Assembly (NCBI GenBank): GCA_041662625.1
Contig: JBAZSB010000001.1
Span: 310,467-374,466, forward strand
Reading direction: 5' to 3'
DNA length: 64,000 nucleotides
Source of the DNA: Patescibacteria group bacterium
Lineage (GTDB): Bacteria; Patescibacteriota; Patescibacteriia; Buchananbacterales; UBA6539
In this document: positions 29,639 to 53,139 of the stretch, one piece after another
Position numbering within the stretch: the first letter of the stretch is position 1
How the letters are laid out: each line of letters opens with the position of its first letter
Notes under the pieces: model-generated
Told to the model about the DNA's origin: nothing
Databases searched by the model: none
The model's input: the letters and a program-made list of their open reading frames with translations, nothing else
Program-made: the position numbers and the translations under genes

Positions 29639-30796
29639 TTATTTACTAGTCTTAGAAATATTAATTAAAATGCCTGAGGCGGCCAAAGAAACCGCTAAAG
29701 CCGTACCACCATAACTGACAAATGGTAAAGGAATACCAGTTAACGGCAATAAACCAACCATGGCACCGATATTCAGAAAAGCTTGAAAAGTAAACCAGGA
29801 AATTATCCCAACCACAATAAACCGGCCATAATCATCTTCAATCCCTTGAGCTAGCTTAAAACCACGCCAAGCCAAAAGTAAAAATAAAATAATCAAAGCC
29901 GTAGCAAAAATAAAACCAAGTTCTTCGGCAATAATAGCAAAAATTGAATCCCCCATCACTTCCGGTAAATAAGCAAATTTTTGGCGGGACTGGCCAAAAC
30001 CAAAACCAAACCAGCCACCCGAACCAATGGCTAGTAGTGCTTGATTAATATGATAGCCCACTCCCTGGGGATCCAATTCCGGATGCAAAAAAGTCATTAA
30101 GCGCGCTACTTTTGTCGGCATCTGAGTCATTAAAATACCAAAAGCACCTAAACCAAGAGTCATCAAACCCAAAATATGGGTGAAGCGCGCCCCGGCTACA
30201 AAGTAAACTGCAAAAGCGATAGTAATAATCACTAGTAACGTGCCTAAGTCAGGCTCTAAAACTATCAACAGGGAAACTAGACCAAGCAGAACTGAAAAAG
30301 GTACCAGTCCGTTCCAGAAATCAGCATTTTTTTCCCTCCCGCGATAAGAAAACCAACCCGCTAAAGATAAAATTAAAAGCAGCTTAAAAATTTCTGTCGG
30401 TTGGATCGACAAACCGGCAAAATTAAGCCAGCTTTTAGCTTTGCCGTAGCTGGCACCAAGGCCAGGGATAAAAACCGAAATTAATAAAATGATAGAAAGA
30501 ACAAAAAAACCTACCGTATATTTTTCCCAGCGCTGATAATCAATTTTCGACAAAATAAAAAATAAAATCAGGCCCGGCACAATCCCCCGCGAAACCTGAT
30601 GCCAAAAAAAATAATAAGTATAGCCCTTTTGTTGAAAAGACACAACGCTTGATGCCGAAGAAAGCATAATTAAACCAAAGGCAGCGATGATAAAAATCAG
30701 GGTTAACAAAAAAATGTCACTGCGACCCGTGATTTGTTTTTTCGGTTTAATAAACTTTGCTAAATAGCTTTTTTTTCTAAAATTAAACTTTCTCAT
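29639..30796 (-). CDS. ftsW: SEDS-family peptidoglycan glycosyltransferase FtsW/RodA
   Basis: 385 aa; about 10 TM segments; SEDS pattern; dcw position between murD and murG. Confidence 0.8.
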   Translation of the reverse strand: MRKFNFRKKSYLAKFIKPKKQITGRSDIFLLTLIFIIAAFGLIMLSSASSVVSFQQKGYTYYFFWHQVSRGIVPGLILFFILSKIDYQRWEKYTVGFFVLSIILLISVFIPGLGASYGKAKSWLNFAGLSIQPTEIFKLLLILSLAGWFSYRGREKNADFWNGLVPFSVLLGLVSLLIVLEPDLGTLLVIITIAFAVYFVAGARFTHILGLMTLGLGAFGILMTQMPTKVARLMTFLHPELDPQGVGYHINQALLAIGSGGWFGFGFGQSRQKFAYLPEVMGDSIFAIIAEELGFIFATALIILFLLLAWRGFKLAQGIEDDYGRFIVVGIISWFTFQAFLNIGAMVGLLPLTGIPLPFVSYGGTALAVSLAASGILINISKTSK

Positions 30797-32208
30797 AACT
30801 GAAAAACAATTGTTTTAAATTGATCGCCTCGATCAAACTCATTAATGAATAGGTTAAAAGATGCGGAGGCGGGTGAAAGTAAAATTGTATCCCCGCTTTT
30901 CCCAAAACTTTGAGCCAGACTCACGGCCTCAGTCATCTTGTTTAATTCGGCAATAAATGGCCGGAATTTCAACGACTTAAATTGTTTTTTTAACTGCTCG
31001 CTGCCCGGACCGGAAAACAAAATTACCGCTTTGCATTTTTGTTTGATAATTTTGGCTAATTCTTGATATTTGGCATCAGGAATATTTTTGGTGTCGCCGC
31101 CTGCCAACAAAATTACATTTCTTTTTTTGGCCAGTCTCAGAGCGGCAATTGTCGCGTCCGGTGTCGTTGCTGTTGTATCATTGATATATTTAATGCCTTT
31201 TTTTTCTTTAATTAATTCTAACCGACCGGGCAAACCCTTAAATTGTTTCAAAGCTGATTTAATAGCCAAGGGCGAAATATTAAAAGAAGCGGTAGCGGCC
31301 AAAGCGGCTAAAACATTTTCTAAGTTATGCCAACCAAAAAGCTTAATATCACTTACCTTGGCTAATCTTTTTTCCCCGCCGTTCCGCCGTAAGAAAATTT
31401 GACCACTTCTGACAAAGCAACCATTCTCCTCAGTAAAATATTTTTTTGAAAACCAAAATCGTTGTGAAACTACTACCTGACCCAATTTCTTGGTTTGGGG
31501 ATTATCTAAATTTAAAATGACAAAATCATTTTGATTTTGCCAGGTGAAAATATTTTTTTTGGCGGAAATATAAGAGGCCATCCCAAAGTAACGATTGAGG
31601 TGATCCGGATAAATATTAGTGAAAACAGCAATATGCGGGCTTAAGTTCTGCTCCCCTAAAATTTCTAATTGCCAGGAAGATAATTCCAAAACCACCAGAT
31701 CATTTGGTTTAACTTGATCTAAAATTTCCAGCATCGGTTGCTGAGGAAGACCGGCCAGCCAAACTGTTCCGTGTTTCATGTTCCGTGTTCCATGCCTTAA
31801 TATTTCATAAACTAAACTAGCCGTCGTTGACTTTCCCCGCGTTCCGGTCACGCCAATGATTTGGGCCGGACAATTTTTAAAAAATAGACTGGCCTCATTT
31901 TCAATTGGAATACCGGCTTTTCTGGCAAGCTTTAAGTATTTTGATTCCCGCCTCACGCCCGGGTTTTGAATAATTAAATCTGCATTTTTGAAATCACCTG
32001 CCCGGTGCTGCCCAAGTATTAACTTGATTTTTTGATTTTTTGTTTTCTTGATTCTCTTTAAAGATACGCTTAGCTCTTTGGCTGTCTTCAAATCCGTCAC
32101 CGTAACGCTGGCCCCATGCTTTGTTAGCCATTTAACACAAGCGACTCCACCGCCGTGGAGCCCTAGTCCCATTACTGTGACTTTTTTACCACTAAATAAA
32201 TTTCTCAT
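30793..32208 (-). CDS. murD: UDP-N-acetylmuramoylalanine--D-glutamate ligase MurD
   Basis: N-terminal GLGLHGGGVA Rossmann motif and GTRGKSTT P-loop. Confidence 0.8.
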   Translation of the reverse strand: MRNLFSGKKVTVMGLGLHGGGVACVKWLTKHGASVTVTDLKTAKELSVSLKRIKKTKNQKIKLILGQHRAGDFKNADLIIQNPGVRRESKYLKLARKAGIPIENEASLFFKNCPAQIIGVTGTRGKSTTASLVYEILRHGTRNMKHGTVWLAGLPQQPMLEILDQVKPNDLVVLELSSWQLEILGEQNLSPHIAVFTNIYPDHLNRYFGMASYISAKKNIFTWQNQNDFVILNLDNPQTKKLGQVVVSQRFWFSKKYFTEENGCFVRSGQIFLRRNGGEKRLAKVSDIKLFGWHNLENVLAALAATASFNISPLAIKSALKQFKGLPGRLELIKEKKGIKYINDTTATTPDATIAALRLAKKRNVILLAGGDTKNIPDAKYQELAKIIKQKCKAVILFSGPGSEQLKKQFKSLKFRPFIAELNKMTEAVSLAQSFGKSGDTILLSPASASFNLFINEFDRGDQFKTIVFQL

Positions 32209-32215
32209 TTTTGCT

Positions 32216-33256
32216 TTAAGTTTTATCCACTAAAAATAGAATTAAGCCAACTACCGCAGAAATTCCCGAAATTACCCAAAAACGCATGACGATTTTTGGC
32301 TCAGGCCAACCTTTGGCTTCAAGGTGATGATGCAGCGGCGAAGAAATAAAAAATTTATGGCCAAAAAACTTTTTAGAAATCATCTGGATAATAACGGAGA
32401 TAGTCTCAATGACAAAAATAAAACCGATAATTGGCAAAAGCAAAGCGGCATTAGTCAGCATCGCAATAATTCCTAAAGTGACTCCCAAAGACATTGAGCC
32501 GGTATCACCCATAAAAAACCTGGCCGGATTAATATTAAACCAGAGGAAAGCTGAAAGCGCGCCAATGATGACACCGCAAAAAGTGGCCAGATCATAACGG
32601 CCTTGGGCAAAAGAAATTGCCCCATAAGCGCCAAAGGCAATCAGTAAAGTTCCACCGGCCAAACCATCGAGGCCATCAGTCAAATTGACGGCATGAGCCG
32701 TAGCAATAATTACAAGAATAAAAAATGGAATATACCATAAGCCAATATCCAAGTAGCCAAAAAAAGGAACATAAAGAGTGGTCCATTCCAATTTAAAATA
32801 AAACCACCAGGCGCCAACAATAGCAATTAAACCATATATCAGGAAGCGGTGGCGCATCCGCAACCCGCCGCCGCCTTTGCCCATTCGCCAAACATCAAAC
32901 AAATCATCAATCAAACCAACGGCAGCTGAAGCAAGTAAAGCGCCAAGAGGCAGCAATGTTTCTTTACGTGATAAAAAATCTAATTTTGAAAACCACCCAT
33001 CAAAAAATTTACTTAAATAAAAAAATAAAAGGATTAGAAATAAAGTGGTGCCCCAAATCAAAATCCCACCCATTGTCGGCGTTCCGGCTTTCTTTTTATG
33101 CATGGCCGCAAAAACCGGGGCAGCTTGGGCATCACGAATTCCCTTGCCTAAACGATACTTATACAAAAAATGGGTTAAAAACGGCGTCCAAAGCAAAGTT
33201 AAAACAAAAGAAACCGTTGTTAAAAAGAAAATTTTGGTAATAAAAAAATTAGTCAT
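32216..33256 (-). CDS. mraY: phospho-N-acetylmuramoyl-pentapeptide transferase MraY
   Basis: NLTDGLDGLAGG and DTGS motifs; polytopic membrane protein. Confidence 0.85.
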   Translation of the reverse strand: MTNFFITKIFFLTTVSFVLTLLWTPFLTHFLYKYRLGKGIRDAQAAPVFAAMHKKKAGTPTMGGILIWGTTLFLILLFFYLSKFFDGWFSKLDFLSRKETLLPLGALLASAAVGLIDDLFDVWRMGKGGGGLRMRHRFLIYGLIAIVGAWWFYFKLEWTTLYVPFFGYLDIGLWYIPFFILVIIATAHAVNLTDGLDGLAGGTLLIAFGAYGAISFAQGRYDLATFCGVIIGALSAFLWFNINPARFFMGDTGSMSLGVTLGIIAMLTNAALLLPIIGFIFVIETISVIIQMISKKFFGHKFFISSPLHHHLEAKGWPEPKIVMRFWVISGISAVVGLILFLVDKT

Positions 33257-33262
33257 CTCAAT

Positions 33263-33688
33263 TTAATTAACTAAAGTTATGAAAACCCCGGCTAAAATAA
33301 AAATAAACTGGAGCAGACTAGCGGTACCAACCAAAAAATAACTGAGGATTCTTTCTCTTTGATAAAATATCAAACTGATTAGAAGATTAATTACGAGAAA
33401 TCCCAATCCAAACAGTGGCAGAAAAAATATCTGGTGCCAAGGGCCAAGCAGATCAATACCAAAATAAATATTATAATGAAGAAATATTAAATCAGAAAAA
33501 TTTCTGGCTTGCCAGACCAAAAAAAGCCATAAAATAATATTGGCAATCAAACTAAAAACCAGATTAATTTTAATAAACCGGTTACGGTAGTAAGAACCCA
33601 AAAAAGTTTGTTGGAAAGGTTGAGCGGCCATAAAAAATGATAAGATAAGGCTATTTCTATAATAATGATTATTTACGATTTTGTCCAC
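33263..33688 (-). CDS. hypothetical polytopic membrane protein
   Basis: 141 aa; four hydrophobic helices. Confidence 0.35.
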   Translation of the reverse strand: MDKIVNNHYYRNSLILSFFMAAQPFQQTFLGSYYRNRFIKINLVFSLIANIILWLFLVWQARNFSDLIFLHYNIYFGIDLLGPWHQIFFLPLFGLGFLVINLLISLIFYQRERILSYFLVGTASLLQFIFILAGVFITLVN

Positions 33689-33699
33689 CTGCCCTTTTT

Positions 33700-33725
33700 T
33701 AAAATTTCGATTTTATGGTATAATA
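33700..33725 (+). promoter_or_regulatory. extended -10 promoter (TGgTATAAT) for the type IV pilus operon
   Basis: atggTATAAT at 33715-33723, about 40 nt upstream of the pilB ATG. Confidence 0.4.
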
Positions 33726-33761
33726 AAACTAACTAAATCGCTAAGATAAAAACAAATTTTT

Positions 33762-35489
33762 ATGTTTACTGAGCAAGAAATTGAAAAAATTATTCTGGAA
33801 ACCAAAATTTTAGGCCAAAAAGAACTAAATTTATACCTTGAGGAGTCAAAAAAAAGGAACCAAAAGCTGGAAGAATACCTTATCAGCCAGAAAATTATCA
33901 ACGAGGAACAACTCTACCAGACTGCCGCCCAATATTTTAATCTCCCCTTTATTAACCTCAAAAACGAAACTATCCGCAAGGATATTCTTTTTTTAATCCC
34001 CGAACCAATAGCGACCACTCATCGGATTCTCGCTTTCGACAAAACCGATACGGAATTAAAACTTGCCGCCCTGAATCCAGCCGATTTACAAATCTTTGAA
34101 TTTTTAGGTAAAAAAACCGGCCTCGAAGTAAAAATCTATCTAACCACACCGGAAGGCATTAATGAGGGAATAAAAAATTATCACAAAGGATTAAAAGCAG
34201 AATTTCAAGAACTTACCAATGGCAAGGAAAATATTGAAATTTCCGGCGATACTAAATTAAAAGAATTAGCCCATGATTTGCCGGTAATCAGAATAGTCGA
34301 TACTTTACTGGAATATGCAATCTTTGAAAGTGCGTCGGATATTCATATTGAACCAACGGAGAAAGAGGTGGTTGTTCGCTACCGAATTGATGGGATCTTA
34401 CGGAATGTCATGACTCTGCCTAAATCGATTCATGCCGGTATTATTGCCCGAATCAAAATTTTGGCAAATTTAAAATTAGATGAACATCGCTTACCCCAGG
34501 ATGGCCGTTTCAAAATTGTCACCAATGAATATAAAGTATCATTTCGTGTTTCCATTATTCCGGCCTATGACGGAGAAAAAATAGTCTTGCGGGCTTTAAA
34601 TGAACAAACCAGTGTAATCACTCTGGAGCAGCTCGGCTTTCAGAAAAAATCATTGGATAGAATTAAAAGAAATATCGCTAAACCCCACGGCCTAATTCTG
34701 GTAACCGGACCGACTGGTTCGGGAAAAACCACAACTCTTTATGCCGTCTTAAACATCCTAAACCGACCGGAAGTGAATATTACCACCATTGAGGACCCAA
34801 TTGAATATCGAATGCCCGGCATCAATCAAACTCAGGTTAACCCAAAAATCGGTTATACTTTTGCCGGCGGCTTACGGGCATTTCTAAGGCAAGATCCTAA
34901 TATTATTATGGTCGGCGAAATCCGGGATCAGGAAACTGCGGAAATCGCCATTCATGCGGCTTTAACCGGCCATCTAGTACTTTCCACTCTTCATACTAAT
35001 GACGCCCCAACAACCTTGCCTCGCTTAAGCGAAATGGGAGTACCGGCCTTTTTGGTTGCCTCCACCTGTAATGTCATTATTGCCCAAAGGCTGGTAAGAA
35101 AAATCTGCCAAGACTGCATTGAAAGCTACAATTTAACTAAAGAAGAAATCGCAAAATTAGAAAAGCAAATTAATCTAGAATCAATTCTCAGCACCTTGGA
35201 AAAAGAAAATCTAATAACCAAAAAACAAAGTAAGGAATCTCTGCTTTTCTACCGCGGCAAAGGCTGCAAGAAATGCAATAAAACCGGCTATAAAGGCCGA
35301 ATTGGCCTTTATGAAGTGTTGGAAATCACCCCAGAGATTAATGAATTGATTCTTAAGGGCTCACCGGCCAAAGAAATTCTGGAAACTGCCAAAAAACAAG
35401 AAATGCTAACCATTCTGGAAGATGGCTTCATTAAAGCTAAAACCGGAATTACTACGATTGAAGAAGTGCTCAGGGTAACAAAAGATTAA
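33762..35489 (+). CDS. pilB: type IV pilus assembly ATPase PilB (GspE family)
   Basis: GspE N-domain; Walker A GPTGSGKTTT; Asp box and His box; C-terminal tetra-Cys zinc motif CQDC...CKKC. Confidence 0.85.
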   Translation: MFTEQEIEKIILETKILGQKELNLYLEESKKRNQKLEEYLISQKIINEEQLYQTAAQYFNLPFINLKNETIRKDILFLIPEPIATTHRILAFDKTDTELKLAALNPADLQIFEFLGKKTGLEVKIYLTTPEGINEGIKNYHKGLKAEFQELTNGKENIEISGDTKLKELAHDLPVIRIVDTLLEYAIFESASDIHIEPTEKEVVVRYRIDGILRNVMTLPKSIHAGIIARIKILANLKLDEHRLPQDGRFKIVTNEYKVSFRVSIIPAYDGEKIVLRALNEQTSVITLEQLGFQKKSLDRIKRNIAKPHGLILVTGPTGSGKTTTLYAVLNILNRPEVNITTIEDPIEYRMPGINQTQVNPKIGYTFAGGLRAFLRQDPNIIMVGEIRDQETAEIAIHAALTGHLVLSTLHTNDAPTTLPRLSEMGVPAFLVASTCNVIIAQRLVRKICQDCIESYNLTKEEIAKLEKQINLESILSTLEKENLITKKQSKESLLFYRGKGCKKCNKTGYKGRIGLYEVLEITPEINELILKGSPAKEILETAKKQEMLTILEDGFIKAKTGITTIEEVLRVTKD

Positions 35490-35530: not shown

Positions 35531-36619
35531 ATGAACCTAAAAGAAAAATTGGCTCAAATAGTAGGCTGGCTGCGAAAGCCAAGAAAAGTTTCCCTTTCCC
35601 AAAAAATATTCTTTGTCCAACAGCTGGGGGTAATGCTTAAAGCCGGAATTTCTTTGTCGACTGCTTTAAAAACTCTGGCCCAGCAGACAACTTCCAAAAG
35701 TTTCAAAACAATTTTAGTTGACCTTCAACAAGACGTAGAAAAAGGCAATTTACTTTCTAAAGGTCTGGAGAGATACTCAAAAATATTTGGCGAATTATTC
35801 ATCAATATGATTAAAGCTGGTGAAGTTTCCGGCAAGCTCGAGGATGTTTTAAAACAACTTTTTGTCCAGCTGAAAAAGGATCACGACATCATCTCAAAGG
35901 TCAAGGGGGCGATGATTTATCCGATGATTGTGATTCTAATGATGATTGCTATTGGAATTTTGGTTCTAATCTATGTCATTCCAACTATGTCGGGCATCTT
36001 TACTGAAATGAATATTGAATTACCGCTAGCGACCAGAATCTTGATCTACTCTAGCCAATTCGCTCTGAACTACGGAATTTTTGTTTCAATCGGTTTAGCA
36101 ATTTTGGCAGTCATAATTGGCCGAGTAATTAGCCTGCCACAAGGAAAGAGACAATTCCACCAGCTGCTTTTAAAAACTCCGATTTTGGGCCGGATAATCA
36201 GAAAGATTAATTTGGCCCGTTTTTGTCGAGCTTTAAGCTCACTGCTTAAAACTGACATCCCAATCGTCCAATCATTTGAAATCACTGCCAAAATTCTCGG
36301 CAATGTCAAATATAAAGATGCGCTAACTGAAGCTAAAGAAAAAATTAAAAAAGGCGTCAGTATTGAAGAGTCATTAAGACCGCACATTAAACTATTTCCG
36401 CCAGTTGTCTTGCAGATGATTATGGTTGGTGAAGAAACCGGAGCCTTGGATAATATTTTGGAAGAATCAGCTGTTTTCTATGAAGAAGACGTTGCCCAAA
36501 CTATGGAAAATTTACCTTCAATTTTAGAACCAGTCTTAATGATTATCCTCGGCATTGCAGTGGCGGGAATGGCCGTCGCTGTTATTATGCCGATGTACTC
36601 TTTGAGCCAACAAATCTAA
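35531..36619 (+). CDS. pilC: type IV pilus platform protein PilC (GspF family)
   Basis: Two GspF repeats; three TM segments; 362 aa. Confidence 0.85.
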   Translation: MNLKEKLAQIVGWLRKPRKVSLSQKIFFVQQLGVMLKAGISLSTALKTLAQQTTSKSFKTILVDLQQDVEKGNLLSKGLERYSKIFGELFINMIKAGEVSGKLEDVLKQLFVQLKKDHDIISKVKGAMIYPMIVILMMIAIGILVLIYVIPTMSGIFTEMNIELPLATRILIYSSQFALNYGIFVSIGLAILAVIIGRVISLPQGKRQFHQLLLKTPILGRIIRKINLARFCRALSSLLKTDIPIVQSFEITAKILGNVKYKDALTEAKEKIKKGVSIEESLRPHIKLFPPVVLQMIMVGEETGALDNILEESAVFYEEDVAQTMENLPSILEPVLMIILGIAVAGMAVAVIMPMYSLSQQI

Positions 36620-36627
36620 CCAGAAAA

Positions 36628-39600
36628 ATGGCTAAAATTTTAAAAAATCCTAAAGGATTCTCACTAATTGAGGTTGTTTTTGCCACTCTAATTCTAGCCA
36701 CGGCCGGAGTGGGAGTTTTAAGTATGTTTGGATTTGGTCTGAAAGTAATCGCCGAGATCAAGTCTAAGACCGGAGCTATAACTGTTGCTAATGAAATTAT
36801 AGAAATGATCCATAATCTTCCTTACAATCAGGTCGGCACTGTCGGCGGCCTTATTTCCGGACCGGTACCACAAGAAGATACGATCAACTTAAACGGAGTT
36901 GAATATGCAGTCAGCACTAGCGTCGATTATATTGATGACCCTTTTGACGGCACGGTAGCATTAGGCACTGACGAATTAGGCAATGATTATAAAAAAATCC
37001 GAGTGGCCGTAGCCTGGACCAGCCATTTTGGTCAAAAAGAAATAGTTTCAGTCACAACGATTGCTCCCCAAGGAATAGAATCAAATGAAGGATCGGGTAT
37101 TTTGTGGATTAATGTCATTAATGCCAATGGCGACCCCGTGTCTGATGCCTCTATCCATATTGTCAATCACAGTACCAATCCAGAAATTGATGATTCTTCA
37201 CATAAAACTAATGATGAAGGCTACTATTATTCTAGTGCTCCATCAGCCAATAGCTCTTATCAGATTACCGTTACTAAAGACGGCTACAGCAGCGATTATA
37301 CGTGCGCCATTGATCCAATTGGTGCTGGCTGCAGTGCCGCCGAAGGTAATCCTAATCCAGTCAAACCGCATGCAACGGTAATTGAAGGTCGTCTGACTTC
37401 AATTACTTTTGCCATTGACCAAGTGGCAACTTTAAATATTCATACTATTTCTCAAACTATTCCTAATGAATGGCAGGTTAATACTGATTCCAGTTCTGAA
37501 GACCAGTTCTCCCCTGCTCTGGCTTTAGGAACAAATGGCAATTATTATTTCGTTTGGCAGGACTTTCGTAGTTACGCCGCAAGAATTTACAGTCAGAGTT
37601 ATGACCAACAAGTTAACCAATGGACTTCTGATTTACCAGTAACAACTTCTAATAATCAAGGCGCTCCTCAACTGGCTTTGGATGGTGACAATAATATTTA
37701 TTTCACCTGGCATGATGATAGAACCGGTAATCAAGATATTTACCTGGATAAATATGATTCTTTGGGTAATGACCTTTGGACTGGAGCCAAAAAAATTAAT
37801 ACCGATTCTGGTTCAGCCGACCAGCAATATCCAAAAATAATTTATAACGCCTCAAGCACTGCACCGGCTTTTTATATCGCCTGGAAAGACGAGCGGGCGG
37901 GTGGAGGAAAATCAGATATTTATTTACAGAAATTTGACACTAGTGGTAATGCCTTATGGTCGGCGGAATTGAAAGTCAATTTAAACTCATCTTCAGCTTA
38001 CCAAGCTAGTGATTCTGCCAGCTGGACTTTTGATAATTTGCTAGATTATGTCTGCAACAGCGGTAGCTGCGATGGCAGTAATGATATTGAAGTAAGCGGC
38101 GGCTTTTCCCAGCTAGTCCCCTTAAAAACCTGCCAAGGAACTCCCGATAACTGCGATACTCTTTTAACTGAAGCCAGTTGTGGCAACCAAAGCGGCTGCA
38201 GTTGGGACCAGGCCGGCCCCTGCAGTGGCCTAAGTTGCAGCTGTAATTTACTGACTGAAGAAGCTGATTGTGATTTGGCATCAAGCTGCTTGTGGCAGGC
38301 TGGCGCTGAAAGCTGCTCGGGTAGTTGCCACTGTTGGTCAATCGGTAATCGCGGTCGGTGTAATTCCGTACCTCAATGCAGCTGGTGGTTTTTCTTTTGC
38401 AACGGCGGCAGCAGTTGTAGCTGCCAGGATATTACTAATCAGACCACTTGTCTAGATGCCGACTGCTCATGGGGTTCTTCTGGCGGCAGTTGTTCTGGAA
38501 GCTGCAGCTGCTCAGATTTAACCACTGAATCAATTTGTACCCAATCAAGCTGTGATTGGGATCCGGCCGGACCCTGTTCAGGCACGGCTGTGGCTTGCGG
38601 CAGTTTTACTGATTTAGAAACTTGTCAGGATCAAACCGGCTGTTCTTGGGAAGACTCGGGATCTGGTTATCCTACTGATAAGCCGGATATTTATATTGCT
38701 GAATCGTTGTCTGTAGCCAATCTGACTGCCTGGGATTCTTTCACAGAAACGGCAGTAAAAAACGGCGGCGAGATCTATTACCAGCTTTCTGATAACAATG
38801 GCGGAAACTGGAAATATTTTGACGGCAGCGGCTGGTCAACAGCCGGAGCCTCTGATTATAATACCGCCGGAGAAATTAATGATCATATCGCTTTATTTCC
38901 TATTGCCAAAGGAAAAATAATGTTCAAAGCCTTTTTTGTCAGTAACGGGAGCCAGCAAATTCAATTAGACCAAATCGACATCGGTTATTCTTATACCACT
39001 GATGGCGGCGGCTACTCTCAATCGGTTGATTTAGCAATGGATCAAGATGAAAACGTTTATGTTGCCTGGGAAGACTACCAGATTGATAATTATGATATTT
39101 TCATCCAAAAAGTTGATTACCTTGGTAGTGTTGTCTGGACTAATGATATTAGGGCAAATACTGCCGGCAGTGGTAATCAAACCAATCCCAATCTCAACGT
39201 TGACAGCAATAATGATGTTTATATTGTCTGGCAGGATGATCGCAACGGCAACAACGACATCTACGGCCAAAAATACGATTCGGCGGGTAATAATCTATGG
39301 CCAACTGGCGATTTGGTAATGAGCGTGGTGACAACCAGCAATCAAGAAAATCCTAAGGCAGTTATTGATGCGAGTAATAATCTTTATATTGTGTGGCAAG
39401 ACTATCGTAACGGCAATAATGATATTTATAGTCAAAAGATTGACTCAATGGGTAATATCATCTGGCCCAATGATGTTCGGATTAATTCTGACACCACTGG
39501 TGAACAAAAAAATCCTGATGTCATCATTAACCAATCAGGCAATCTGGTAATAACTTGGCAGGACAATAAAGATGGCAATTACGATATTATGGCGGCCGAA

Positions 39601-39882
39601 TACCCAAATGACCCCAGTGCTTACACTTCTACCCCTAACGTTCCCTTAATAATCGTGGGCAGTAAAAAAATAGGGACAAGTCCCGATCTCTATAAATATA
39701 ATGAAAATCACACTACGGATGCCTCAGGTCAGCTAATCCTAAATAATATTGAATGGGATACCGAGGGTTATAATATCAGCCTTCAGGCCGGGTCTGTTTA
39801 TACTATCATCAGTACGGAACCACCAATGCCGATTTCTGTTTCTCCAGGAGCTACTATCGATATTACTATAAATTTAGAATAA
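36628..39882 (+). CDS. giant type IV pilin-like protein (1084 aa): prepilin N-terminus, Ig/prealbumin-like domain, W-D-R repeat (propeller-like) blocks and a Cys-rich repeat module; candidate pilus adhesin
   Basis: N-terminus MAKILKNPKG^FSLIEVVFATLILATAGVGV has the class III signal (Gly-1, Phe+1, Glu+5). About 7 repeats of the form Y(F/I)(V/A)WQDxRxGNxDIYxQK(Y/I)DSxGNxLW. The 210-aa middle region carries more than 40 Cys in CSW / CSGSCSC repeats. Confidence 0.7.
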   Translation: MAKILKNPKGFSLIEVVFATLILATAGVGVLSMFGFGLKVIAEIKSKTGAITVANEIIEMIHNLPYNQVGTVGGLISGPVPQEDTINLNGVEYAVSTSVDYIDDPFDGTVALGTDELGNDYKKIRVAVAWTSHFGQKEIVSVTTIAPQGIESNEGSGILWINVINANGDPVSDASIHIVNHSTNPEIDDSSHKTNDEGYYYSSAPSANSSYQITVTKDGYSSDYTCAIDPIGAGCSAAEGNPNPVKPHATVIEGRLTSITFAIDQVATLNIHTISQTIPNEWQVNTDSSSEDQFSPALALGTNGNYYFVWQDFRSYAARIYSQSYDQQVNQWTSDLPVTTSNNQGAPQLALDGDNNIYFTWHDDRTGNQDIYLDKYDSLGNDLWTGAKKINTDSGSADQQYPKIIYNASSTAPAFYIAWKDERAGGGKSDIYLQKFDTSGNALWSAELKVNLNSSSAYQASDSASWTFDNLLDYVCNSGSCDGSNDIEVSGGFSQLVPLKTCQGTPDNCDTLLTEASCGNQSGCSWDQAGPCSGLSCSCNLLTEEADCDLASSCLWQAGAESCSGSCHCWSIGNRGRCNSVPQCSWWFFFCNGGSSCSCQDITNQTTCLDADCSWGSSGGSCSGSCSCSDLTTESICTQSSCDWDPAGPCSGTAVACGSFTDLETCQDQTGCSWEDSGSGYPTDKPDIYIAESLSVANLTAWDSFTETAVKNGGEIYYQLSDNNGGNWKYFDGSGWSTAGASDYNTAGEINDHIALFPIAKGKIMFKAFFVSNGSQQIQLDQIDIGYSYTTDGGGYSQSVDLAMDQDENVYVAWEDYQIDNYDIFIQKVDYLGSVVWTNDIRANTAGSGNQTNPNLNVDSNNDVYIVWQDDRNGNNDIYGQKYDSAGNNLWPTGDLVMSVVTTSNQENPKAVIDASNNLYIVWQDYRNGNNDIYSQKIDSMGNIIWPNDVRINSDTTGEQKNPDVIINQSGNLVITWQDNKDGNYDIMAAEYPNDPSAYTSTPNVPLIIVGSKKIGTSPDLYKYNENHTTDASGQLILNNIEWDTEGYNISLQAGSVYTIISTEPPMPISVSPGATIDITINLE

Positions 39883-39897
39883 GGGCAGAATAAAAAA

Positions 39898-40521
39898 ATG
39901 TTTCGAGCCAAAGAAAAAAACCAAAGCCACGGCTTCACTTTAATAGAAGCGATGGTAACAATCGGAATATTTCTAGTCAGCTTAAGCGCTGTAACCCTTT
40001 TTGTCACCCAGGGTTTCAAAGTTAACCGGTTTGCGATTCAACAGAGTGACGCCATTAACTATGCTCGTAAAGGAATTGACATTATGATCAAAGAAATTAG
40101 AGAAGCCTCACCCGCAGAAAATGGCAGCTATCCGATTGTTACCGCCCAAAATCAGACCCTTACTTTTTATAGCGATATTGACCAAGACGAATTAGTAGAA
40201 AGAGTAAGATATTTCTTGGACGGGGTTAATTTAAAAAAAGCCGTTTCAAAACCTAGTGGGTTTCCTCCGGTCTATTCCATTGAAGAACAGATAAGCACTC
40301 TATCGGAATACGTCCGAAACGATACTGACCCAATTTTTTATTATTATAATAAGGATTTTCCAACTGACACTGAAAATAATCCGTTGCCTCAGCCCATAGC
40401 GATAAACGAGGTAAGATTGATCAGAATTTTTTTAAAAATAAATGTTGACCCTGCCTATGCCCCGGCCGATTTTGTTTTAATTTCCAACAGCCAGCTAAGA
40501 AATCTTAAAGATAATCTATAG
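39898..40521 (+). CDS. minor pilin / pseudopilin (prepilin-type N-terminus)
   Basis: MFRAKEKNQSHG^FTLIEAMVTIGIFLVSLSAV; Glu at +5. Confidence 0.65.
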   Translation: MFRAKEKNQSHGFTLIEAMVTIGIFLVSLSAVTLFVTQGFKVNRFAIQQSDAINYARKGIDIMIKEIREASPAENGSYPIVTAQNQTLTFYSDIDQDELVERVRYFLDGVNLKKAVSKPSGFPPVYSIEEQISTLSEYVRNDTDPIFYYYNKDFPTDTENNPLPQPIAINEVRLIRIFLKINVDPAYAPADFVLISNSQLRNLKDNL

Positions 40522-41946
40522 ATGAAAAATTCTAAACAAACGCCAAAAATTAATTTGGTTAGTAAGGAAAGAGGTGGTATACTAATAATGACGTTAGTTT
40601 TTGTAACTGTTTTTTTAATTATTGCAATTGGTCTTCTGAGTTTGATTAATCAGCAGACAAAATTAGGCGAGCAACGCCAAGCCTTATCGGAGGCCATCCA
40701 GATTGCTGAAGCCGGCGTAAATTATTACCGTTGGCACCTAGCGCATGATTTAGAGGATTATGCTGATGATACCGGCCAAACCGGCTGCTACCCCTGCGGA
40801 CCTTATACTCATGAGTACTACGACCCCTCTAGCGGCTTAGTTGGTTATTTTAGTTTAACTATCACCCCACCTGCCCCCACTTACCCTGGCTCAACAATCG
40901 TCAAAATCAAATCAGTTGGCTGGACCACAAAATATCCCAATTCAAAAAGAGAAGTGGCAGTAAGGCTGGGCTTACCGTCGCTAGCCAGATTTACCACTGT
41001 TGTCCATAACAATCTAAATTACGGCGTCGGTTCGGAAACCTTCGGCCCGGTTCATTCCAATGGCGGCATTAGATTTGATGGCATTGCCCATAATATTGTC
41101 AGTAGTGCCTTGGAAGAATATTGGTATGGCGGCAGCTATGGCTGGCGCGATGGAGTTTGGACATCACTAGCCAATGAAGATGAGGTATTTTTAGCCGGCA
41201 AAGAATTCCCGGCGCCAACGGTTGACTTCGGCAGTTTCACCCAAAGTTTAAATACGATGGAAACTTATGCCACTTCAGATGGTGTATTATTAGAACCATC
41301 CGGATATCAAGGGTATCATATTCAATTTTTGGGTGATGGTAATTTCCAGTACCGAATAGTTGAAAGCAAAACTTCGACTTGCAATGATGAAGACACCGGG
41401 GGCATTGCCACCTATTACGGTGATTGGCAAACCGTTGCTATACCGGACAATGGCTTAATCTTTGCTAAAGATAATTTATGGGTTGACGGCACGGTTAATG
41501 GCAGTCGGGTAACTTTAGTAGCCGCCGAAGATCCCCTAGATACCGGCGAAGCAGATATTTTTCTGAATAACGATCTATTATATACTGATAAAAATGGTTT
41601 GGATGTTATCGGTTTAATTGCCCAAAGGAATGTAGTTATTGGCTTGTATAGCGAAGATGATTTAGAAATTGACGCCGTTTGTATCGCTAAAAATGGCAAG
41701 CGCTTTAGGCCTGATTACGGTTCCACTATGCAATGCGGGTCAAGTGTCTTAAGAGATGAATTCCTTTTGTACGGATCAACAATTAGCTATTTAACTCCCT
41801 ACATGAACAGCGGCTCAAGCGGGTATGAAAATCGCAGTTATATCTATGACCCTAATACGCTTTATGCTCCCCCGCCCTTTTTCCCAACCAGCGGTGAATA
41901 CGAATTTATCCTCTGGGAAGAAGTTTTAGAAGGAGAAACATACTAA
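40522..41946 (+). CDS. PilX-N-like pilus-associated protein (large, uncleaved hydrophobic N-terminus)
   Basis: KERGGILIMTLVFVTVFLIIAIGLLSL resembles the PilX_N domain; 474 aa; no G/FxxxE cleavage motif. Confidence 0.45.
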   Translation: MKNSKQTPKINLVSKERGGILIMTLVFVTVFLIIAIGLLSLINQQTKLGEQRQALSEAIQIAEAGVNYYRWHLAHDLEDYADDTGQTGCYPCGPYTHEYYDPSSGLVGYFSLTITPPAPTYPGSTIVKIKSVGWTTKYPNSKREVAVRLGLPSLARFTTVVHNNLNYGVGSETFGPVHSNGGIRFDGIAHNIVSSALEEYWYGGSYGWRDGVWTSLANEDEVFLAGKEFPAPTVDFGSFTQSLNTMETYATSDGVLLEPSGYQGYHIQFLGDGNFQYRIVESKTSTCNDEDTGGIATYYGDWQTVAIPDNGLIFAKDNLWVDGTVNGSRVTLVAAEDPLDTGEADIFLNNDLLYTDKNGLDVIGLIAQRNVVIGLYSEDDLEIDAVCIAKNGKRFRPDYGSTMQCGSSVLRDEFLLYGSTISYLTPYMNSGSSGYENRSYIYDPNTLYAPPPFFPTSGEYEFILWEEVLEGETY

Positions 41947-41957
41947 AAAATATTTTT

Positions 41958-43013
41958 ATGGAAATTGAGTCATCAAAAAATATCTTCGGCCTAGATATCA
42001 GCCAAAATTGTGTGCGCCTGATCCAGTTAAAAAGGAAAAATAAAGATTTTTCCATTAAATCTTTTAATGAGGTAAGGCTGGCTGATGGAACCATTGTTAA
42101 TGGCGAAATAAAAAATCAGGATAAAATGACAGAGGCCGTTAAAAAATTGGTTAAAACTGTCCAAGGAGACAAGATAAAAACTAAAAATCTTGTCGCCGTT
42201 TTACCTGAACCAAAAACTTTCATTAAAGTAATAGAAATAGTAATTAAAAATGAAAAAGATAACATAACGAAGTTGGTTCAGGAAGAAATAAAAAATCATA
42301 TTCCTTTAGAGGCTGAGGATATCTACTTCGATTGGCAGATTTTAAGCCAAAATAACAATCAGACAAAAATTATAGTGGCGGCAATCCCAAAAGTAATATC
42401 AGACTCTTACTTTGATACTTTAACCAAGGCCGGTTTTATTCCAATCGCTTTAGAAGTTGAAGCCATCGCCATTGCCCGAGCTTTGATCAAAGAAAAAGAA
42501 GAGGACCCCAAAAAAGCTAAAATTATCATTGATTTTGGGGCAACGAGAACCAGCTTAATTATCTACGACCACAAAGCAGTTCAATTCACTGTCAGTTTAC
42601 CAATTTCCGGTGATAAAATTACCGAAACAATTTCTAACACTCTTAGCCTTGATGCCCAAAAGGCGGAAGAAGCAAAAATTGTCTGCGGTTTAGACCAAAA
42701 AAAATGTGAAGGGGCAATATTCAAAATACTTGTAGCCTCAATTAATAATCTGGCTGACCAAATTAAAAAATCAATTATTTTTTACAAAACAAACTTTGTC
42801 GATAGCAATGACATAGCTGGAATTATAATTTGCGGCGGCGGGGCAAACTTGTCCCAAATTGATAAAATATTAACGGAGGCACTTCAAATCCCAACCGCAA
42901 TTGCTAATCCCTTAATCAACCTCGGTAAACAAAAAGGATTAAATATGCCAGCTGACAAATTGCTGTCTTATGCGACGGCTATTGGTCTAGCTTTAAGAAA
43001 TTGGCAAAAATAG
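41958..43013 (+). CDS. pilM: type IV pilus assembly protein PilM (actin-like ATPase fold)
   Basis: 351 aa; FtsA/PilM-like pattern; position upstream of pilN/pilO. Confidence 0.7.
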   Translation: MEIESSKNIFGLDISQNCVRLIQLKRKNKDFSIKSFNEVRLADGTIVNGEIKNQDKMTEAVKKLVKTVQGDKIKTKNLVAVLPEPKTFIKVIEIVIKNEKDNITKLVQEEIKNHIPLEAEDIYFDWQILSQNNNQTKIIVAAIPKVISDSYFDTLTKAGFIPIALEVEAIAIARALIKEKEEDPKKAKIIIDFGATRTSLIIYDHKAVQFTVSLPISGDKITETISNTLSLDAQKAEEAKIVCGLDQKKCEGAIFKILVASINNLADQIKKSIIFYKTNFVDSNDIAGIIICGGGANLSQIDKILTEALQIPTAIANPLINLGKQKGLNMPADKLLSYATAIGLALRNWQK

Positions 43014-43558
43014 AAATGATTACTTTGAATTTAATTTCACCTGAACAAAAAAAAGAACTCGGACTACGCCGGTTTTATATTTTGATCAAAAACTTAACTA
43101 TTATTTTCTTACTTTTTACTACCATTTTAGCAATTATCATGTTAATTGCTAAAATGATTATCCAGAATAATTTCAATAAAGTTGTTAATGATTATTCTTT
43201 GACTACAAGATACAGTCGAATTGTTAATTATGAAATGGAAAATTTTGATAAGCAACTGAACTTTATAGTAAATGTTCAAAATGACTACATCCCCTGGACT
43301 AATTTTATTGCCAGTTTTATCAATTCTGTCCCACCAGAAATTAATCTCTATAGTGTTGATTTGGGAAAGACAGATAGCCAAATGAAAATTAATGGCTTTG
43401 CCCAAAATCGGGATGACCTCTTAAAATTCAAAGGTAATCTAGAAAACCTGCCACTTCTATCGGAAATAAATGTACCAATGGGAAACCTCCTAAAAAAAGA
43501 AAGTATTGAATTCGAAATTGAAGCAAAAATCAACTTAGAAGAATTGAAAAAACTATGA
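43001..43558 (+). CDS. pilN: PilN-like bitopic membrane protein
   Basis: Short cytoplasmic N-terminus, one TM (IIFLLFTTILAIIMLIA), periplasmic coiled-coil domain; overlaps the pilM stop. Confidence 0.55.
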   Translation: MAKIEMITLNLISPEQKKELGLRRFYILIKNLTIIFLLFTTILAIIMLIAKMIIQNNFNKVVNDYSLTTRYSRIVNYEMENFDKQLNFIVNVQNDYIPWTNFIASFINSVPPEINLYSVDLGKTDSQMKINGFAQNRDDLLKFKGNLENLPLLSEINVPMGNLLKKESIEFEIEAKINLEELKKL

Positions 43559-44091
43559 GCCTAAAACTGAAAACTGCTATTATTGTATCACTAAATATCC
43601 TACTTATTATAGTAATTTCTTTGGTTATTATTTTACCAATCACTCGAGATATTAAAAAAATTGGTGATGCAATCTACAAAGAAAGAGTTGATTTGGAAAA
43701 AAAATATTTAAGAGGCCAATTATTGAAAAAAACAGTCAGCGATTTTGAAAAAATAAAACCTCAAAAAGACAGATTGAATGCTATTTTTATTATTGAAGGT
43801 GAGGAACTAAAATTTGTTTCTAGGCTGGAAGAAATTGCCAGTTTAAATAATGTCCGCCAAACTATTGAGCTAGATACAAAAAATTCTGAGATTCAGGAAG
43901 GAATAAAGATATTACCTTTAAAAATAACAACCCAGGGTAATTTTGTATCAATAATGAAATACCTAACTGATTTGGAACAACTCAATTATTATTTTAATAT
44001 TTATTCAGTCAGAATAGGAACGGAAAAAGATTTAATTATTGCTACTTTAGATGGTAAAATTTTCAGCCAGGGTAAAGAGGAAATAAAATAA
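43555..44091 (+). CDS. pilO: PilO-like bitopic membrane protein
   Basis: One TM then coiled-coil/ferredoxin-like C-domain; overlaps the pilN stop. Confidence 0.5.
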   Translation: MSLKLKTAIIVSLNILLIIVISLVIILPITRDIKKIGDAIYKERVDLEKKYLRGQLLKKTVSDFEKIKPQKDRLNAIFIIEGEELKFVSRLEEIASLNNVRQTIELDTKNSEIQEGIKILPLKITTQGNFVSIMKYLTDLEQLNYYFNIYSVRIGTEKDLIIATLDGKIFSQGKEEIK

Positions 44092-44096
44092 ACAAC

Positions 44097-44414
44097 ATGA
44101 AATTAAAACTTGCAAAAATAGCCACCTCTTCAAAAACTATCACCCTGATAGTAACCTTGATTTTTATTATTATTTTAGGGTATTTCGGCGGATTTTTATA
44201 TAAAAATATTTATCAAACCATTACTCAATCCCAGGAAATTATCGTTATGAGGGCAGAAGTTTCCCCCTATGCAATTAACATCGAAAAATTTAATGATATC
44301 TTAACAGCAATTGACAAAAAAAGTACCGCTACAAATACTCCCGCTTGGCAAGAGATGAGGAACCCTTTTGGTTTTACTTCAATTAATCGGCCAACGACCG
44401 GCGGAATAGATTAA
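44097..44414 (+). CDS. small single-TM protein, last gene of the pilus operon (PilP-like?)
   Basis: 105 aa, one TM segment. Confidence 0.3.
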   Translation: MKLKLAKIATSSKTITLIVTLIFIIILGYFGGFLYKNIYQTITQSQEIIVMRAEVSPYAINIEKFNDILTAIDKKSTATNTPAWQEMRNPFGFTSINRPTTGGID

Positions 44415-44449
44415 AAAAAGTCTATAAAGCTCTTCTAGCTTACTTACTT

Positions 44450-44476
44450 AAAACCGAGGTCTATACCTCGGTTTTA
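44450..44476. terminator. bidirectional intrinsic terminator between the pilus operon and iscS
   Basis: AAAACCGAGGT-ctata-CCTCGGTTTT. Confidence 0.7.
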
Positions 44477-44497
44477 AGTACGAATTTTTATCACTAA

Positions 44498-53121: not shown

Positions 53122-53139
53122 ACTTTCTTTGAAATTTCC

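Follow-up and report, generated by a model that had tools for sequence, protein, structure and literature searches.

In a type IV pilus operon from a Patescibacteria genome, the third gene encodes a protein that starts like a pilin and runs on to 1084 aa, which raises the question of what such a protein is built from and what it does on the cell. To our knowledge, every Patescibacterium in culture lives attached to a host cell, and Saccharibacteria are the only lineage among them that has been studied genetically. The locus touches the question of how the uncultivated majority of Patescibacteria recognizes its hosts. We analyzed the gene within a 64-kb stretch of one contig (the window), and the features are collected in Table 1.

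The ORF had an ATG start and was open over all 1084 codons. Its product was 100% identical to NCBI MFA6254730.1, and independent assemblies from ENA and Logan gave the same call, which makes a sequencing frameshift unlikely. The initial annotation, made from the letters alone, had described an intact reading frame in third place of a pilB-pilC operon and a pilin-headed multidomain protein inside a type IV pilus operon. All of this was borne out by the assemblies, by the PilB and PilC genes directly upstream, and by the protein architecture together with the PilB-PilC-PilM-PilN context. The CPR-like organism that it surmised agrees with the NCBI source name "Patescibacteria group bacterium" and with the occurrence of orthologs in Candidatus Buchananbacteria.

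Table 1 Features of the pilus operon and domains of the 1084-aa pilin (slash, cleavage site; window coordinates)
Feature	Residues	Position	Strand	Basis
PilB-type extension ATPase, operon gene 1		33762..35489	+	Pfam T2SSE 442 bits and MshEN
PilC/GspF-type platform protein		35531..36619	+	Pfam T2SSF 188 bits, two stretches
1084-aa modular minor pilin, stop included		36628..39882	+	MFA6254730.1; start 8 nt past pilC stop
Class III (prepilin) leader MAKILKNPKG	1-10	36628..36657	+	read from sequence; N_methyl HMM
Pilin module	11-152	36658..37083	+	alpha-1 helix with Glu5, four-stranded sheet
CarboxypepD_reg-type Ig-like beta-sandwich	155-278	37090..37461	+	PF13620; AF2 pLDDT 83-94
Propeller blades 1-3	288-456	37489..37995	+	repeats, AF2, fold matches
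Cassette N-terminal strands	457-501	37996..38130	+	motif W.F....Y....IEV.GG.AQL; pLDDT 79-93
Cysteine-rich array	502-680	38131..38667	+	six tandem ~30-aa units
Predicted jelly-roll (CBM-like)	681-792	38668..39003	+	motif KNGGEIYYQLSD..G..W.Y
Propeller blades 4-7	793-1002	39004..39633	+	repeats, AF2, fold matches
C-terminal beta-sandwich	1003-1084	39634..39879	+	AF2 pLDDT ~90
207-aa minor pilin, tentatively J-type		39898..40521	+	prepilin signal HG/FTLIEAMV; N_methyl 28.2 bits
474-aa PilX_N-type pilin-like protein, tentatively K-type cap		40522..41946	+	PilX_N 21.6 bits (cut-off 25.5)
PilM		41958..43013	+	PilM_2 153 bits; TIGR01175 174 bits (> 133 cut-off)
PilN-like protein		43001..43558	+	PF05137 22.4 bits (cut-off 22.8)
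Two small single-pass membrane proteins, operon end		43555..44414	+	178 aa and 105 aa
Terminator-like hairpin, 16-bp stem then T-run		44445..44480	+	3' of last operon gene

The PilB ORF scored 592 bits against TIGR02538 type_IV_pilB, under the cut-off of 675.65. The large pilin, a pilin of ~205 aa and a PilX_N-type protein of ~475 aa whose N-terminus has no Glu5 form a trio that was kept in four of the four loci examined, including locus L004, where PilB/PilC did not directly precede the trio and PilM did not follow it. The place of the 207-aa pilin directly behind the large one was also kept across loci. Its top matches were ComGF and GspJ (sub-threshold, in three of four loci), and the 474-aa protein gave sub-threshold matches to GspK and ComGG; the matches behind this J/K typing were weak, mixed between types and all below curated cut-offs. 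At the operon end, where the gene order was the same in loci L003 and L006, the 178-aa protein was PilO-like by position only, and neither it nor the 105-aa protein had a family match in the HMM searches. The only strong terminator-like hairpin in the operon lay behind the last gene. A major pilin, a prepilin peptidase (PilD) and PilT were not found among the scanned ORFs of the window.

The head of the large protein was analyzed for its pilin character. The leader is followed by FSLIEVVFATLILATAGVGVL, and the signal with Gly-1, Phe+1 and Glu+5 is canonical as read from the sequence. Pfam N_methyl gave 21.4 bits on the isolated N-terminus (cut-off 21.2), 17.8 bits in the full-length protein, and 24-28 bits in the relatives, so the class III leader with Glu+5 claimed earlier was confirmed. 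Glu5 was kept in more than 90% of 33 aligned relatives. In the AF2 model, residues 13-62 formed a helix and the stretch 83-145 supplied four strands; pLDDT was 80-91 outside the loop at 101-120. The module contains an invariant acidic loop, DDPFDG...NDYK, at residues 103-122. The model thus indicated that the pilin fold of alpha-1 helix and antiparallel sheet is kept in the 1084-aa protein. The initial annotation had supposed that the globular domain of the pilin was replaced, but the predicted four-stranded sheet (residues 63-150) is still there, with the extra modules added behind it and nested into one another.

Models of I-type minor pilins (ComGE, PilV, and GspI, with curated cut-offs) gave hits in 18, 18, and 15 of the 18 family members, none reaching its cut-off and all confined to the first ~55 residues; the best scores were 26 bits for ComGE (cut-off 49), 20.7 for PilV (52.2), and 17.1 for GspI (44.35). 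The N-terminal helix was thus best matched by competence minor pilins of the ComGE type, and natural competence has been described for Saccharibacteria (PMC10633639), both of which would suit a DNA receptor, that is, a large minor pilin of a competence-type pilus capturing the DNA that Patescibacteria need for nucleotides. We consider this reading highly improbable. The mature protein has a pI of 4.07, and, apart from the N-terminal leader and the membrane helix, every domain is acidic (pI 4.0-4.5 each), so DNA binding, which had been suggested before, is unlikely. Moreover, TM7x mutants of a propeller-pilin system had normal competence (PMC11623550).

Behind the pilin module, CarboxypepD_reg (PF13620) matched residues 163-224 with 30.9 bits, just below its cut-off of 32.3, and relatives passed the cut-off with 46.8 and 55.6 bits, in agreement with the Ig/prealbumin-like segment seen at first reading. 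The three and four W-D-R repeats reported there were counted again as seven blades of ~54 aa each with 34% mean pairwise identity, and all seven shared the conserved motif W-x-D-x-R ... DIY-x-Q. Structure prediction was run for the probable seven-bladed propeller, and the AF2 model and fold matches supported it; according to the model, the seven repeats close into an SBBP/CylK-like beta-propeller. The lectin-like segment (~681-792) and the terminal beta-sandwich (~1003-1084) also had confident AF2 models. TIGR04275 beta_prop_Msarc scored 47.2 bits against the 1084-aa protein (cut-off 85), and PF06739 (SBBP) gave no direct Pfam match in it; the SBBP cut-off of 20.5 was passed by the 745-aa relatives P0026 (38.1 bits) and P0023 (26.3 bits).

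The fold matches of the propeller were generic and many of them were enzymes: CylK, which is an alkylating enzyme, sialidases, GH43 enzymes, and several lyases (rhamnose-glucuronate lyase, ulvan lyase, virginiamycin B lyase). Weak BNR_4 and Glyco_hydro_43 sequence matches were found in the 1084-aa protein and in P0020, and peptidase modules occur in some modular pilins (PMC8179133). Such data would fit a pilus-borne enzyme, in which the propeller, perhaps with the jelly-roll as a CBM, is a glycan-cleaving or lyase-type catalyst that opens or remodels the host wall. We regard this as quite unlikely, as every enzyme-family sequence match was below cut-off, PLL-family lectins matched the propeller equally well and at lower rmsd, and the conserved blade residues form the same motif in all seven blades, which indicates a structural repeat and not a single active site. 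The blade type is similar to that of the CylK propeller (PDB 7ron/7roo) and the SBBP family (PF06739; TIGR04275), but CylK works as a soluble biosynthetic enzyme and has a separate N-terminal calcium-binding domain that is absent in the 1084-aa pilin. Catalysis by CylK reportedly needs this separate domain.

Shorter relatives of ~600 and 745 aa revealed how the modules are arranged. In the 600-aa relatives, the C-terminal sandwich stood directly behind the Ig domain, and in the 745-aa relatives, blades 1-3 were contiguous with blades 4-7. The propeller is nested between two sandwiches, and a cassette is nested between blades 3 and 4. The initial annotation listed the cysteine-rich and lectin-like parts as successive domains; they are instead one cassette within the propeller. 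At the same scaffold sites, relatives carried a Laminin_G/pentaxin module, a beta-helix, or no propeller. With a further tier of 1148 aa, the tiers of ~600, 745, 1084 and 1148 aa provide an unusually clean record of nested module gain on one pilin scaffold.

The cassette has 336 aa and consists of an N-terminal strand element, six ~30-aa cysteine units and a CBM-like jelly-roll; an HMM from alignment A3 found the strand element directly upstream of cysteine units or jelly-roll in many other proteins. The cysteine units follow the pattern C-x8-C-x4-5-C-x-W-x5-7-C-x3-4-C. The cysteine-rich stretch (residues 476-672) was at the place given before, but it contained 30 cysteines and not more than 40; 28 of them lie in the array and C476 and C481 just before it, and the whole protein has 32. 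All 30 were invariant in ten full-length sequences (the 1084-aa protein and nine orthologs). The array contains 2 K+R versus 21 D+E, and it had no Pfam match even at E <= 10. Structure prediction was also run for the ordered cysteine-rich domain supposed at first: pLDDT was 27-60 in the first model and 55-85 with a deeper alignment, in which each unit was modeled as a short helix and a beta-hairpin. The units are thus moderately confident in the model, and the stalk is probably disulfide-locked. Residues 681-792 were predicted to have a CBM-type jelly-roll/beta-sandwich fold that resembles carbohydrate-binding modules and receptor ligand-binding domains, with generic fold matches; they had no Pfam family at E <= 10 beyond noise and no sequence relative in the PDB.

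With clustering at 50% identity, the cassette recurred in at least 1,576 protein clusters, many of them pilin-headed, and no Pfam model covers it; this large uncurated family merits a database model. Prepilin-like N-termini were present in at least 69 of the 149 best matches to the cassette profile. Tentatively, the cassette, with its strand element, variable array of cysteine units and jelly-roll, could be a mobile module for host recognition that has not been described before and that seems to occur mainly in pilin-headed surface proteins of Patescibacteria-like organisms. Evolution would shuffle it into set positions of a conserved I-type minor-pilin scaffold. If so, the cassette would fix which host cell an ultrasmall bacterium can attach to, and the array of 30 invariant cysteines would mean that these reduced genomes provide for disulfide formation outside the cell.

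Many of these prepilin-like matches had lengths of 1,000-2,400 aa, a size that a filament body could hardly accommodate, and a major pilin gene was absent from the operon as well as from the scanned ORFs of the window. This could mean that the class III signal serves for export and anchoring only, as in the sugar-binding proteins of the archaeal bindosome or in short pseudopili, and that the protein remains on the cell, anchored through its alpha-1 helix or carried by a very short stub, as a surface adhesin or receptor without a long filament. This seems rather unlikely to us, because the gene holds a minor-pilin slot between pilC and two more minor pilins in a complete assembly operon, because Glu5, so widely kept in the relatives, is needed for subunit docking, and because a bulky modular pilin can sit at a filament tip (PMC8179133).

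On balance, we think that the 1084-aa protein is probably a tip-located modular minor pilin which acts as an adhesin in Buchananbacteria-like Patescibacteria. A prepilin peptidase would cut off the 10-residue leader, a step that we infer since none of the scanned ORFs of the window encoded such a peptidase. Through its hydrophobic alpha-1 helix with Glu5, the mature protein would then dock, placing the large pilin into a priming complex with the two downstream minor pilins, the last of which, without Glu5, would cap it. As the tip of a type IV filament is assembled first and its base last, the priming complex would end up at the pilus tip. Core minor pilins are described to build such a tip complex capped by a subunit without Glu5 (PMC10191384). 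About 930 strongly acidic residues of binding modules would be displayed behind the pilin module, with the Ig-like domain as a stalk and the six cysteine units as a probable second, disulfide-locked stalk that holds out the CBM-like jelly-roll from between blades 3 and 4. The cell would in this way attach to a surface ligand, for which glycans or glycoproteins of a host or partner cell are the likeliest candidates. The adhesin role proposed in the initial annotation agrees with the precedents of modular pilins and PilX2, and its basis in this protein is architecture and analogy.

The PilB (vWA module) and PilC (lectin module) proteins of S. sanguinis are modular pilin adhesins (PMC8179133, Raynaud et al. 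2021). Like them, the 1084-aa protein has an N-terminal pilin carrier with non-pilus domains grafted behind it (CarboxypepD_reg, an SBBP-like propeller, a jelly-roll, and a beta-sandwich), which matches the definition of a modular pilin, and a tip place and an adhesive role are predicted. Like S. sanguinis, the organism apparently lacks an outer membrane, since the operon has no secretin gene. The 1084-aa protein differs in having five or six modules and not one, in that these are nested and not placed end to end, and in an inserted cassette without database signature. Pilin plus PF13620 (IPR012902 - PF13620) is the third commonest modular-pilin architecture, found in 66 proteins, of which many belong to the candidate phyla radiation, and Dataset S1 of the same survey contains no SBBP-propeller pilin architecture (PMC8179133).

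The minor pilin PilX2 of Nanosynbacter lyticus TM7x has a seven-bladed propeller and is needed for host binding (PMC11623550). Both are minor pilins of Patescibacteria type IV pili with a seven-bladed propeller and PLL-type lectin similarity, but the host-binding role is genetically supported for PilX2 and proposed here. PilX2 has RCC1-type blades, a C-terminal propeller and no recognizable PilD signal (PMC11623550), whereas the 1084-aa pilin has SBBP/CylK-like blades, a canonical Gly-1/Phe+1/Glu+5 signal, an I-type-like and not PilX-type head, and an extra cassette within the propeller. An RCC1-propeller pilin of the PilX2 type was ruled out by this signal and by the lack of an RCC1 Pfam match in the protein. 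The locus thus points to the same propeller-pilin strategy as in Saccharibacteria, made from different parts in a distant Buchananbacteria-like lineage, and the 1084-aa pilin is a concrete candidate specificity determinant. Modular pilins have been described before, and so have the combination of a pilin with PF13620 and, in Saccharibacteria, a host-binding pilin with a propeller; the architecture is therefore an elaborate example that extends a known design and not a new kind of system or mechanism; its value lies in candidates and cataloguing, and the modular-pilin concept is unchanged.

Two further comparisons concern the propeller itself. PilY1/PilC proteins, the tip adhesins of type IVa pili, are also large and tip-associated (the tip place being predicted here), with a seven-bladed propeller and variable effector modules, and they work with core minor pilins (PMC8179133, PMC10191384). 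PilY1 of outer-membrane bacteria is a non-pilin that docks on minor pilins via its C-terminal IPR008707 propeller, whereas here the propeller is covalently fused to the pilin. Membership in the PilY1/PilC family was ruled out, as the protein is itself a pilin and had no PilC/PilY1 Pfam match at E <= 0.01. The 1084-aa pilin may work like PilY1 without belonging to its family. In integrins alphaM, alphaL and alphaE, a ligand-binding I-domain is inserted between adjacent propeller blades, namely blades 2 and 3. There, the blades are of the FG-GAP type and the insert is vWA, and here a Cys-stalk and a jelly-roll stand at blades 3/4; with an identity of 6-8%, this likeness is an analogy only.

The large pilin is encoded by 1084 open codons that begin with ATG, 8 nt downstream of the stop codon of the gene before it, and the independent ENA and Logan assemblies gave the identical protein (NCBI entry MFA6254730.1, [quoted passage not shown], from a contig of 922 kb). 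Nine full-length orthologs (1081-1112 aa, 54-84% identity) could be aligned with it end to end. Because of these identical calls on independent assemblies and the end-to-end orthologs, the intact frame proposed in the initial annotation is genuine and not an assembly artefact. The leader MAKILKNPKG is followed by FSLIEVVF..., and Gly-1, Phe+1 and Glu+5 of the prepilin signal were read directly; the leader is presumably cleaved. The initial annotation held that the globular domain of the pilin had been replaced, but AlphaFold2 modelled helix 13-62 packed against four strands (pilin module, residues 1-152), and since the pilin sheet is kept behind the helix, the globular domain is retained. The original observation was thus confirmed as a whole with one corrected number, the cysteine count, and its interpretation stood in part: a pilin-headed propeller protein does lie in the pilus operon, but its pilin domain was not replaced.

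Features of the pilus operon and the inserted cassette (window coordinates)
Feature	Coordinates	Strand	Evidence or remark
PilB	33762-35489	+	T2SSE 442 bits
PilC	35531-36619	+	T2SSF 188 bits
Large pilin	36628-39882	+	prepilin signal + predicted pilin fold
Inserted cassette of the large pilin	37996-39003	+	residues 457-792
207-aa canonical prepilin	39898-40521	+	N_methyl 28.2 bits
474-aa PilX_N-type protein without Glu5	40522-41946	+	PilX_N 21.6 bits (below cut-off)
PilM	41958-43013	+	PilM_2 153 bits
PilN-like	43001-43558	+	22.4 bits vs cut-off 22.8
Two small membrane proteins	43555-44414	+	no family hits
Terminator-like hairpin, 16-bp stem	44445-44480		3' of operon

All genes of the operon are on the + strand, and the operon is divergent from a cell-wall/division cluster (mraY, murD, ftsW, murG, murC, murB, mraW). 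The operon lacks a secretin gene, consistent with an envelope that has no outer membrane. Canonical prepilin signals occurred only twice in the 64-kb window, in the large pilin and the 207-aa protein, and a search of the window for further prepilins or cassette copies returned only this other prepilin and no second cassette. Neither a major pilin nor PilD (prepilin peptidase) nor PilT (retraction ATPase) was recognised among the window ORFs scanned. Display of the large pilin on the cell surface without a long filament is an alternative to a place on a pilus, and we consider it improbable.

The trio (large pilin, 207-aa-type prepilin, Glu5-less protein) kept its order in each of the four loci compared; in one of these, L004, PilB/PilC did not directly precede the trio and no PilM followed it. 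The minor-pilin models ComGE, PilV and GspI matched the N-terminal ~55 residues in 18, 18 and 15 of 18 relatives, with scores below the curated cut-offs. The 207-aa prepilin leaned to ComGF/GspJ and the 474-aa protein to GspK/ComGG/PilX_N, again with all scores below the cut-offs and partly mixed, so we infer an I-J-K arrangement of the three minor pilins as a reasoned assignment from sub-threshold, partly mixed matches, not as membership. PDB profile searches with the full-length family and with the pilin module gave generic pilin N-terminal helices only (Geopilin, PilA, MshA) and noise. The priming complex of type IV filaments is built from the core minor pilins, comes to lie at the pilus tip and carries the Glu5-less subunit as its cap (PMC10191384).

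Behind the pilin module, residues 155-278 form a CarboxypepD_reg-type Ig-like sandwich, for which PF13620 scored 30.9 bits, just below its cut-off of 32.3, and 46.8 and 55.6 bits in relatives. Residues 1003-1084 form a terminal beta-sandwich (pLDDT about 90 in AlphaFold2), and between the two sandwiches lies the propeller (residues 288-456 and 793-1002), which consists of seven ~54-aa blades with the motif W-x-D-x-R ... DIY-x-Q, a mean pairwise identity of 34% and a pLDDT of about 90. When seven-bladed folds were superposed on the predicted propeller model, YncE, the PLL-type lectins CV39L and BP39L, hydrazine synthase beta and integrin alpha fitted at 2.5-3.1 A over 290-331 residues, and the Foldseek result was concordant. 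Two 745-aa relatives scored above the Pfam SBBP cut-off, and the query matched TIGR04275 below cut-off. From these fold and family matches, the blades are SBBP/CylK-like and the ring is predicted to close in spite of the 336-aa insertion, which bears out the earlier suggestion of a probable 7-bladed propeller. A calcium site of the EF-hand-like DxDxDG type in the blades, as in PilY1, was rejected because the spacing W-Q-D-D-R-N-G-N-N-D does not match.

Comparison with shorter relatives indicated how these parts are nested. Relatives of ~745 aa (e.g. P0020 from Candidatus Buchananbacteria) aligned to query residues 6-456 and then straight to 793-1084, therefore residues 457-792 are an insertion between blades 3 and 4. 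Relatives of ~600 aa (e.g. P0050 from Candidatus Doudnabacteria) aligned to 6-277 and then straight to 1009-1083, therefore the entire propeller is itself an insertion between the two sandwiches. The cassette profile found nothing significant in either class. In two relatives of 1144-1148 aa (P0029 and P0033), the loop of the pilin sheet at query residues 111-115 was interrupted by an insertion of ~420 aa, and P0062 had one of ~300 aa at roughly this loop; by precomputed Pfam, P0033 has a Laminin_G_3 domain somewhere in the protein. P0074 (Laminin_G_3 and pentaxin) and P0079 (beta-helix domains) had other sequence where the propeller would be. The alignments thus describe the family as a single carrier into which exchangeable modules are inserted at no fewer than three points. 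In integrins with an I-domain, this domain lies between blades 2 and 3 of the propeller, which offers a helpful parallel to a binding domain projecting from a propeller, here the cassette at blades 3/4.

A separate observation concerns the acidic loop DDPFDG...(D)..GNDYK of the pilin module (residues 103-122, window 36934-36993), which is also where P0029 and P0033 take up their extra sequence. D103, D104, D107, D120, Y121 and K122 were invariant in 33 of 33 aligned relatives of every size class, and AlphaFold2 confidence was lower here (pLDDT 65-69). This loop may bind a metal or contact another subunit.

The inserted cassette contains 30 cysteines (residues 476-672), not the more than 40 counted initially, and all were invariant in the alignment of the query with its nine full-length orthologs (10/10 sequences). 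Twenty-seven of them fall in six tandem ~30-aa units with the consensus C-x8-C-x4-5-C-x-W-x5-7-C-x3-4-C, and they are probably disulfide-bonded. The cysteine region had a pLDDT of only 27-60 in the full-length model, and this was not taken as disorder, since a rerun of the cassette with 12 extra homologous segments gave a mean pLDDT of 80.6, with 55-85 in the cysteine units and more than 90 in the flanking strand element and jelly-roll. Each unit was modelled as a short helix and a beta-hairpin, so the structure prediction called for in the initial annotation returned ordered units. The ortholog P0007 (L006 4665-8003; Candidatus Buchananbacteria RIFCSPHIGHO2_01_FULL_44_11) had one extra isolated unit in blade 3, CAGLTTQLECESQPGCSWGASGPCSGTPTT, so the ~30-aa unit can move independently.

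Neither the cysteine units nor the jelly-roll are covered by any Pfam or NCBIfam model: Pfam scans at E <= 10 gave no family for the cysteine array and only noise for the jelly-roll (DUF5643 and Imm21 at E 0.14), and an NCBIfam scan of the full protein had no match over the cassette. A literature search for pilins or surface proteins rich in cysteine within the candidate phyla radiation found nothing, and one on giant proteins gave only tangential papers. The jelly-roll is a generic ligand-binding sandwich and names no specific lectin family. That the protein is a pilus-borne glycan-active enzyme seems to us unlikely, slightly more so than display without a long filament. An exhaustive search with the cassette profile gave 1,576 representative clusters (50% identity) at E <= 0.001 and 675 at E <= 1e-10, often with 2-5 copies per protein and in carriers of up to 5,686 aa. 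Among the best 149 matches, at least 69 had prepilin-like starts, the G|QSLLE variant included, and several more were pilins truncated at the N-terminus. The cassette is a composite of a strand element W.F....Y.YD..KIEV.GG.AQLK, a variable middle, and YP.D.P with the jelly-roll; in other proteins the middle held one to ~10 cysteine units or an unrelated ~180-aa domain (P0119, P0189). Through the cassette, the large pilin points to an extensive domain family that is associated with pilins and uncurated. A second group of carriers (among P0098-P0246) started with M..WLNLFFR.SG...K.K instead of a prepilin signal.

The definition of modular pilins comes from Raynaud et al. 2021, where pilin plus PF13620 is the third most frequent architecture (66 proteins, many from the candidate phyla radiation) and none with an SBBP propeller is listed (PMC8179133). 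For efficient host binding, TM7x (Saccharibacteria) needs its minor pilin PilX2, which has a seven-bladed RCC1 propeller and resembles PLL lectins (PMC11623550). The principle of a minor pilin with a seven-bladed propeller is common to both, but the blade family differs (SBBP/CylK-like against RCC1), and the large pilin also differs in its canonical prepilin signal, I-type-like carrier, nested architecture and undescribed cassette. It is not a member of PilY1/PilC, being a pilin itself without a PilC/PilY1 domain match, although it plausibly does the same job. From architecture and analogy we favour, with moderate confidence, a modular minor pilin that would be located at the tip and display binding modules, which would attach the cell to a host or partner cell surface. 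A role as DNA receptor, in line with the DNA-binding option raised initially, is very improbable, because the protein is acidic throughout (pI 4.07 overall, 4.0-4.5 in every domain apart from the N-terminal leader and membrane helix). The large pilin does not amount to a new type of system, but it makes a good candidate for experiments and illustrates domain nesting cleanly.

Some observations concern the surroundings. The operon is adjoined by ftsW, murD, mraY and a small ORF at 29639-33688 (- strand), and the interval 33689-33761 is possibly a shared regulatory region. The same juxtaposition was found in Buchananbacteria locus L003, and in L006 unannotated ORFs matched the cell-wall cluster position in size and orientation alone, which suggests a conserved arrangement. 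L003 and the window also share the synteny of the pilus operon with a Peptidase_C39_2-family protein (window 47794-48633, - strand; L003 14990-15850) and CTP synthase a few kb downstream. No tRNA genes were found in the 64-kb window. Four paralogous ORFs (494, 527, 446 and 485 aa; 51637-54084 and 59029-63403, - strand) matched Pfam only via a C-terminal PEP-utilizers mobile domain, and the PPDK_N ATP-binding domain was in a separate 314-aa ORF in the same regions; together they look like a pyruvate-phosphate-dikinase-like set that is unusually split or expanded. A 763-aa ORF (5655-7946, +) had no Pfam match at E <= 1e-5; by eye its N-terminal half seems cytoplasmic, with a hydrophobic segment near residue 400, and its C-terminal half, with Y-x-L-D/N motifs that look like repeats, might be a propeller.
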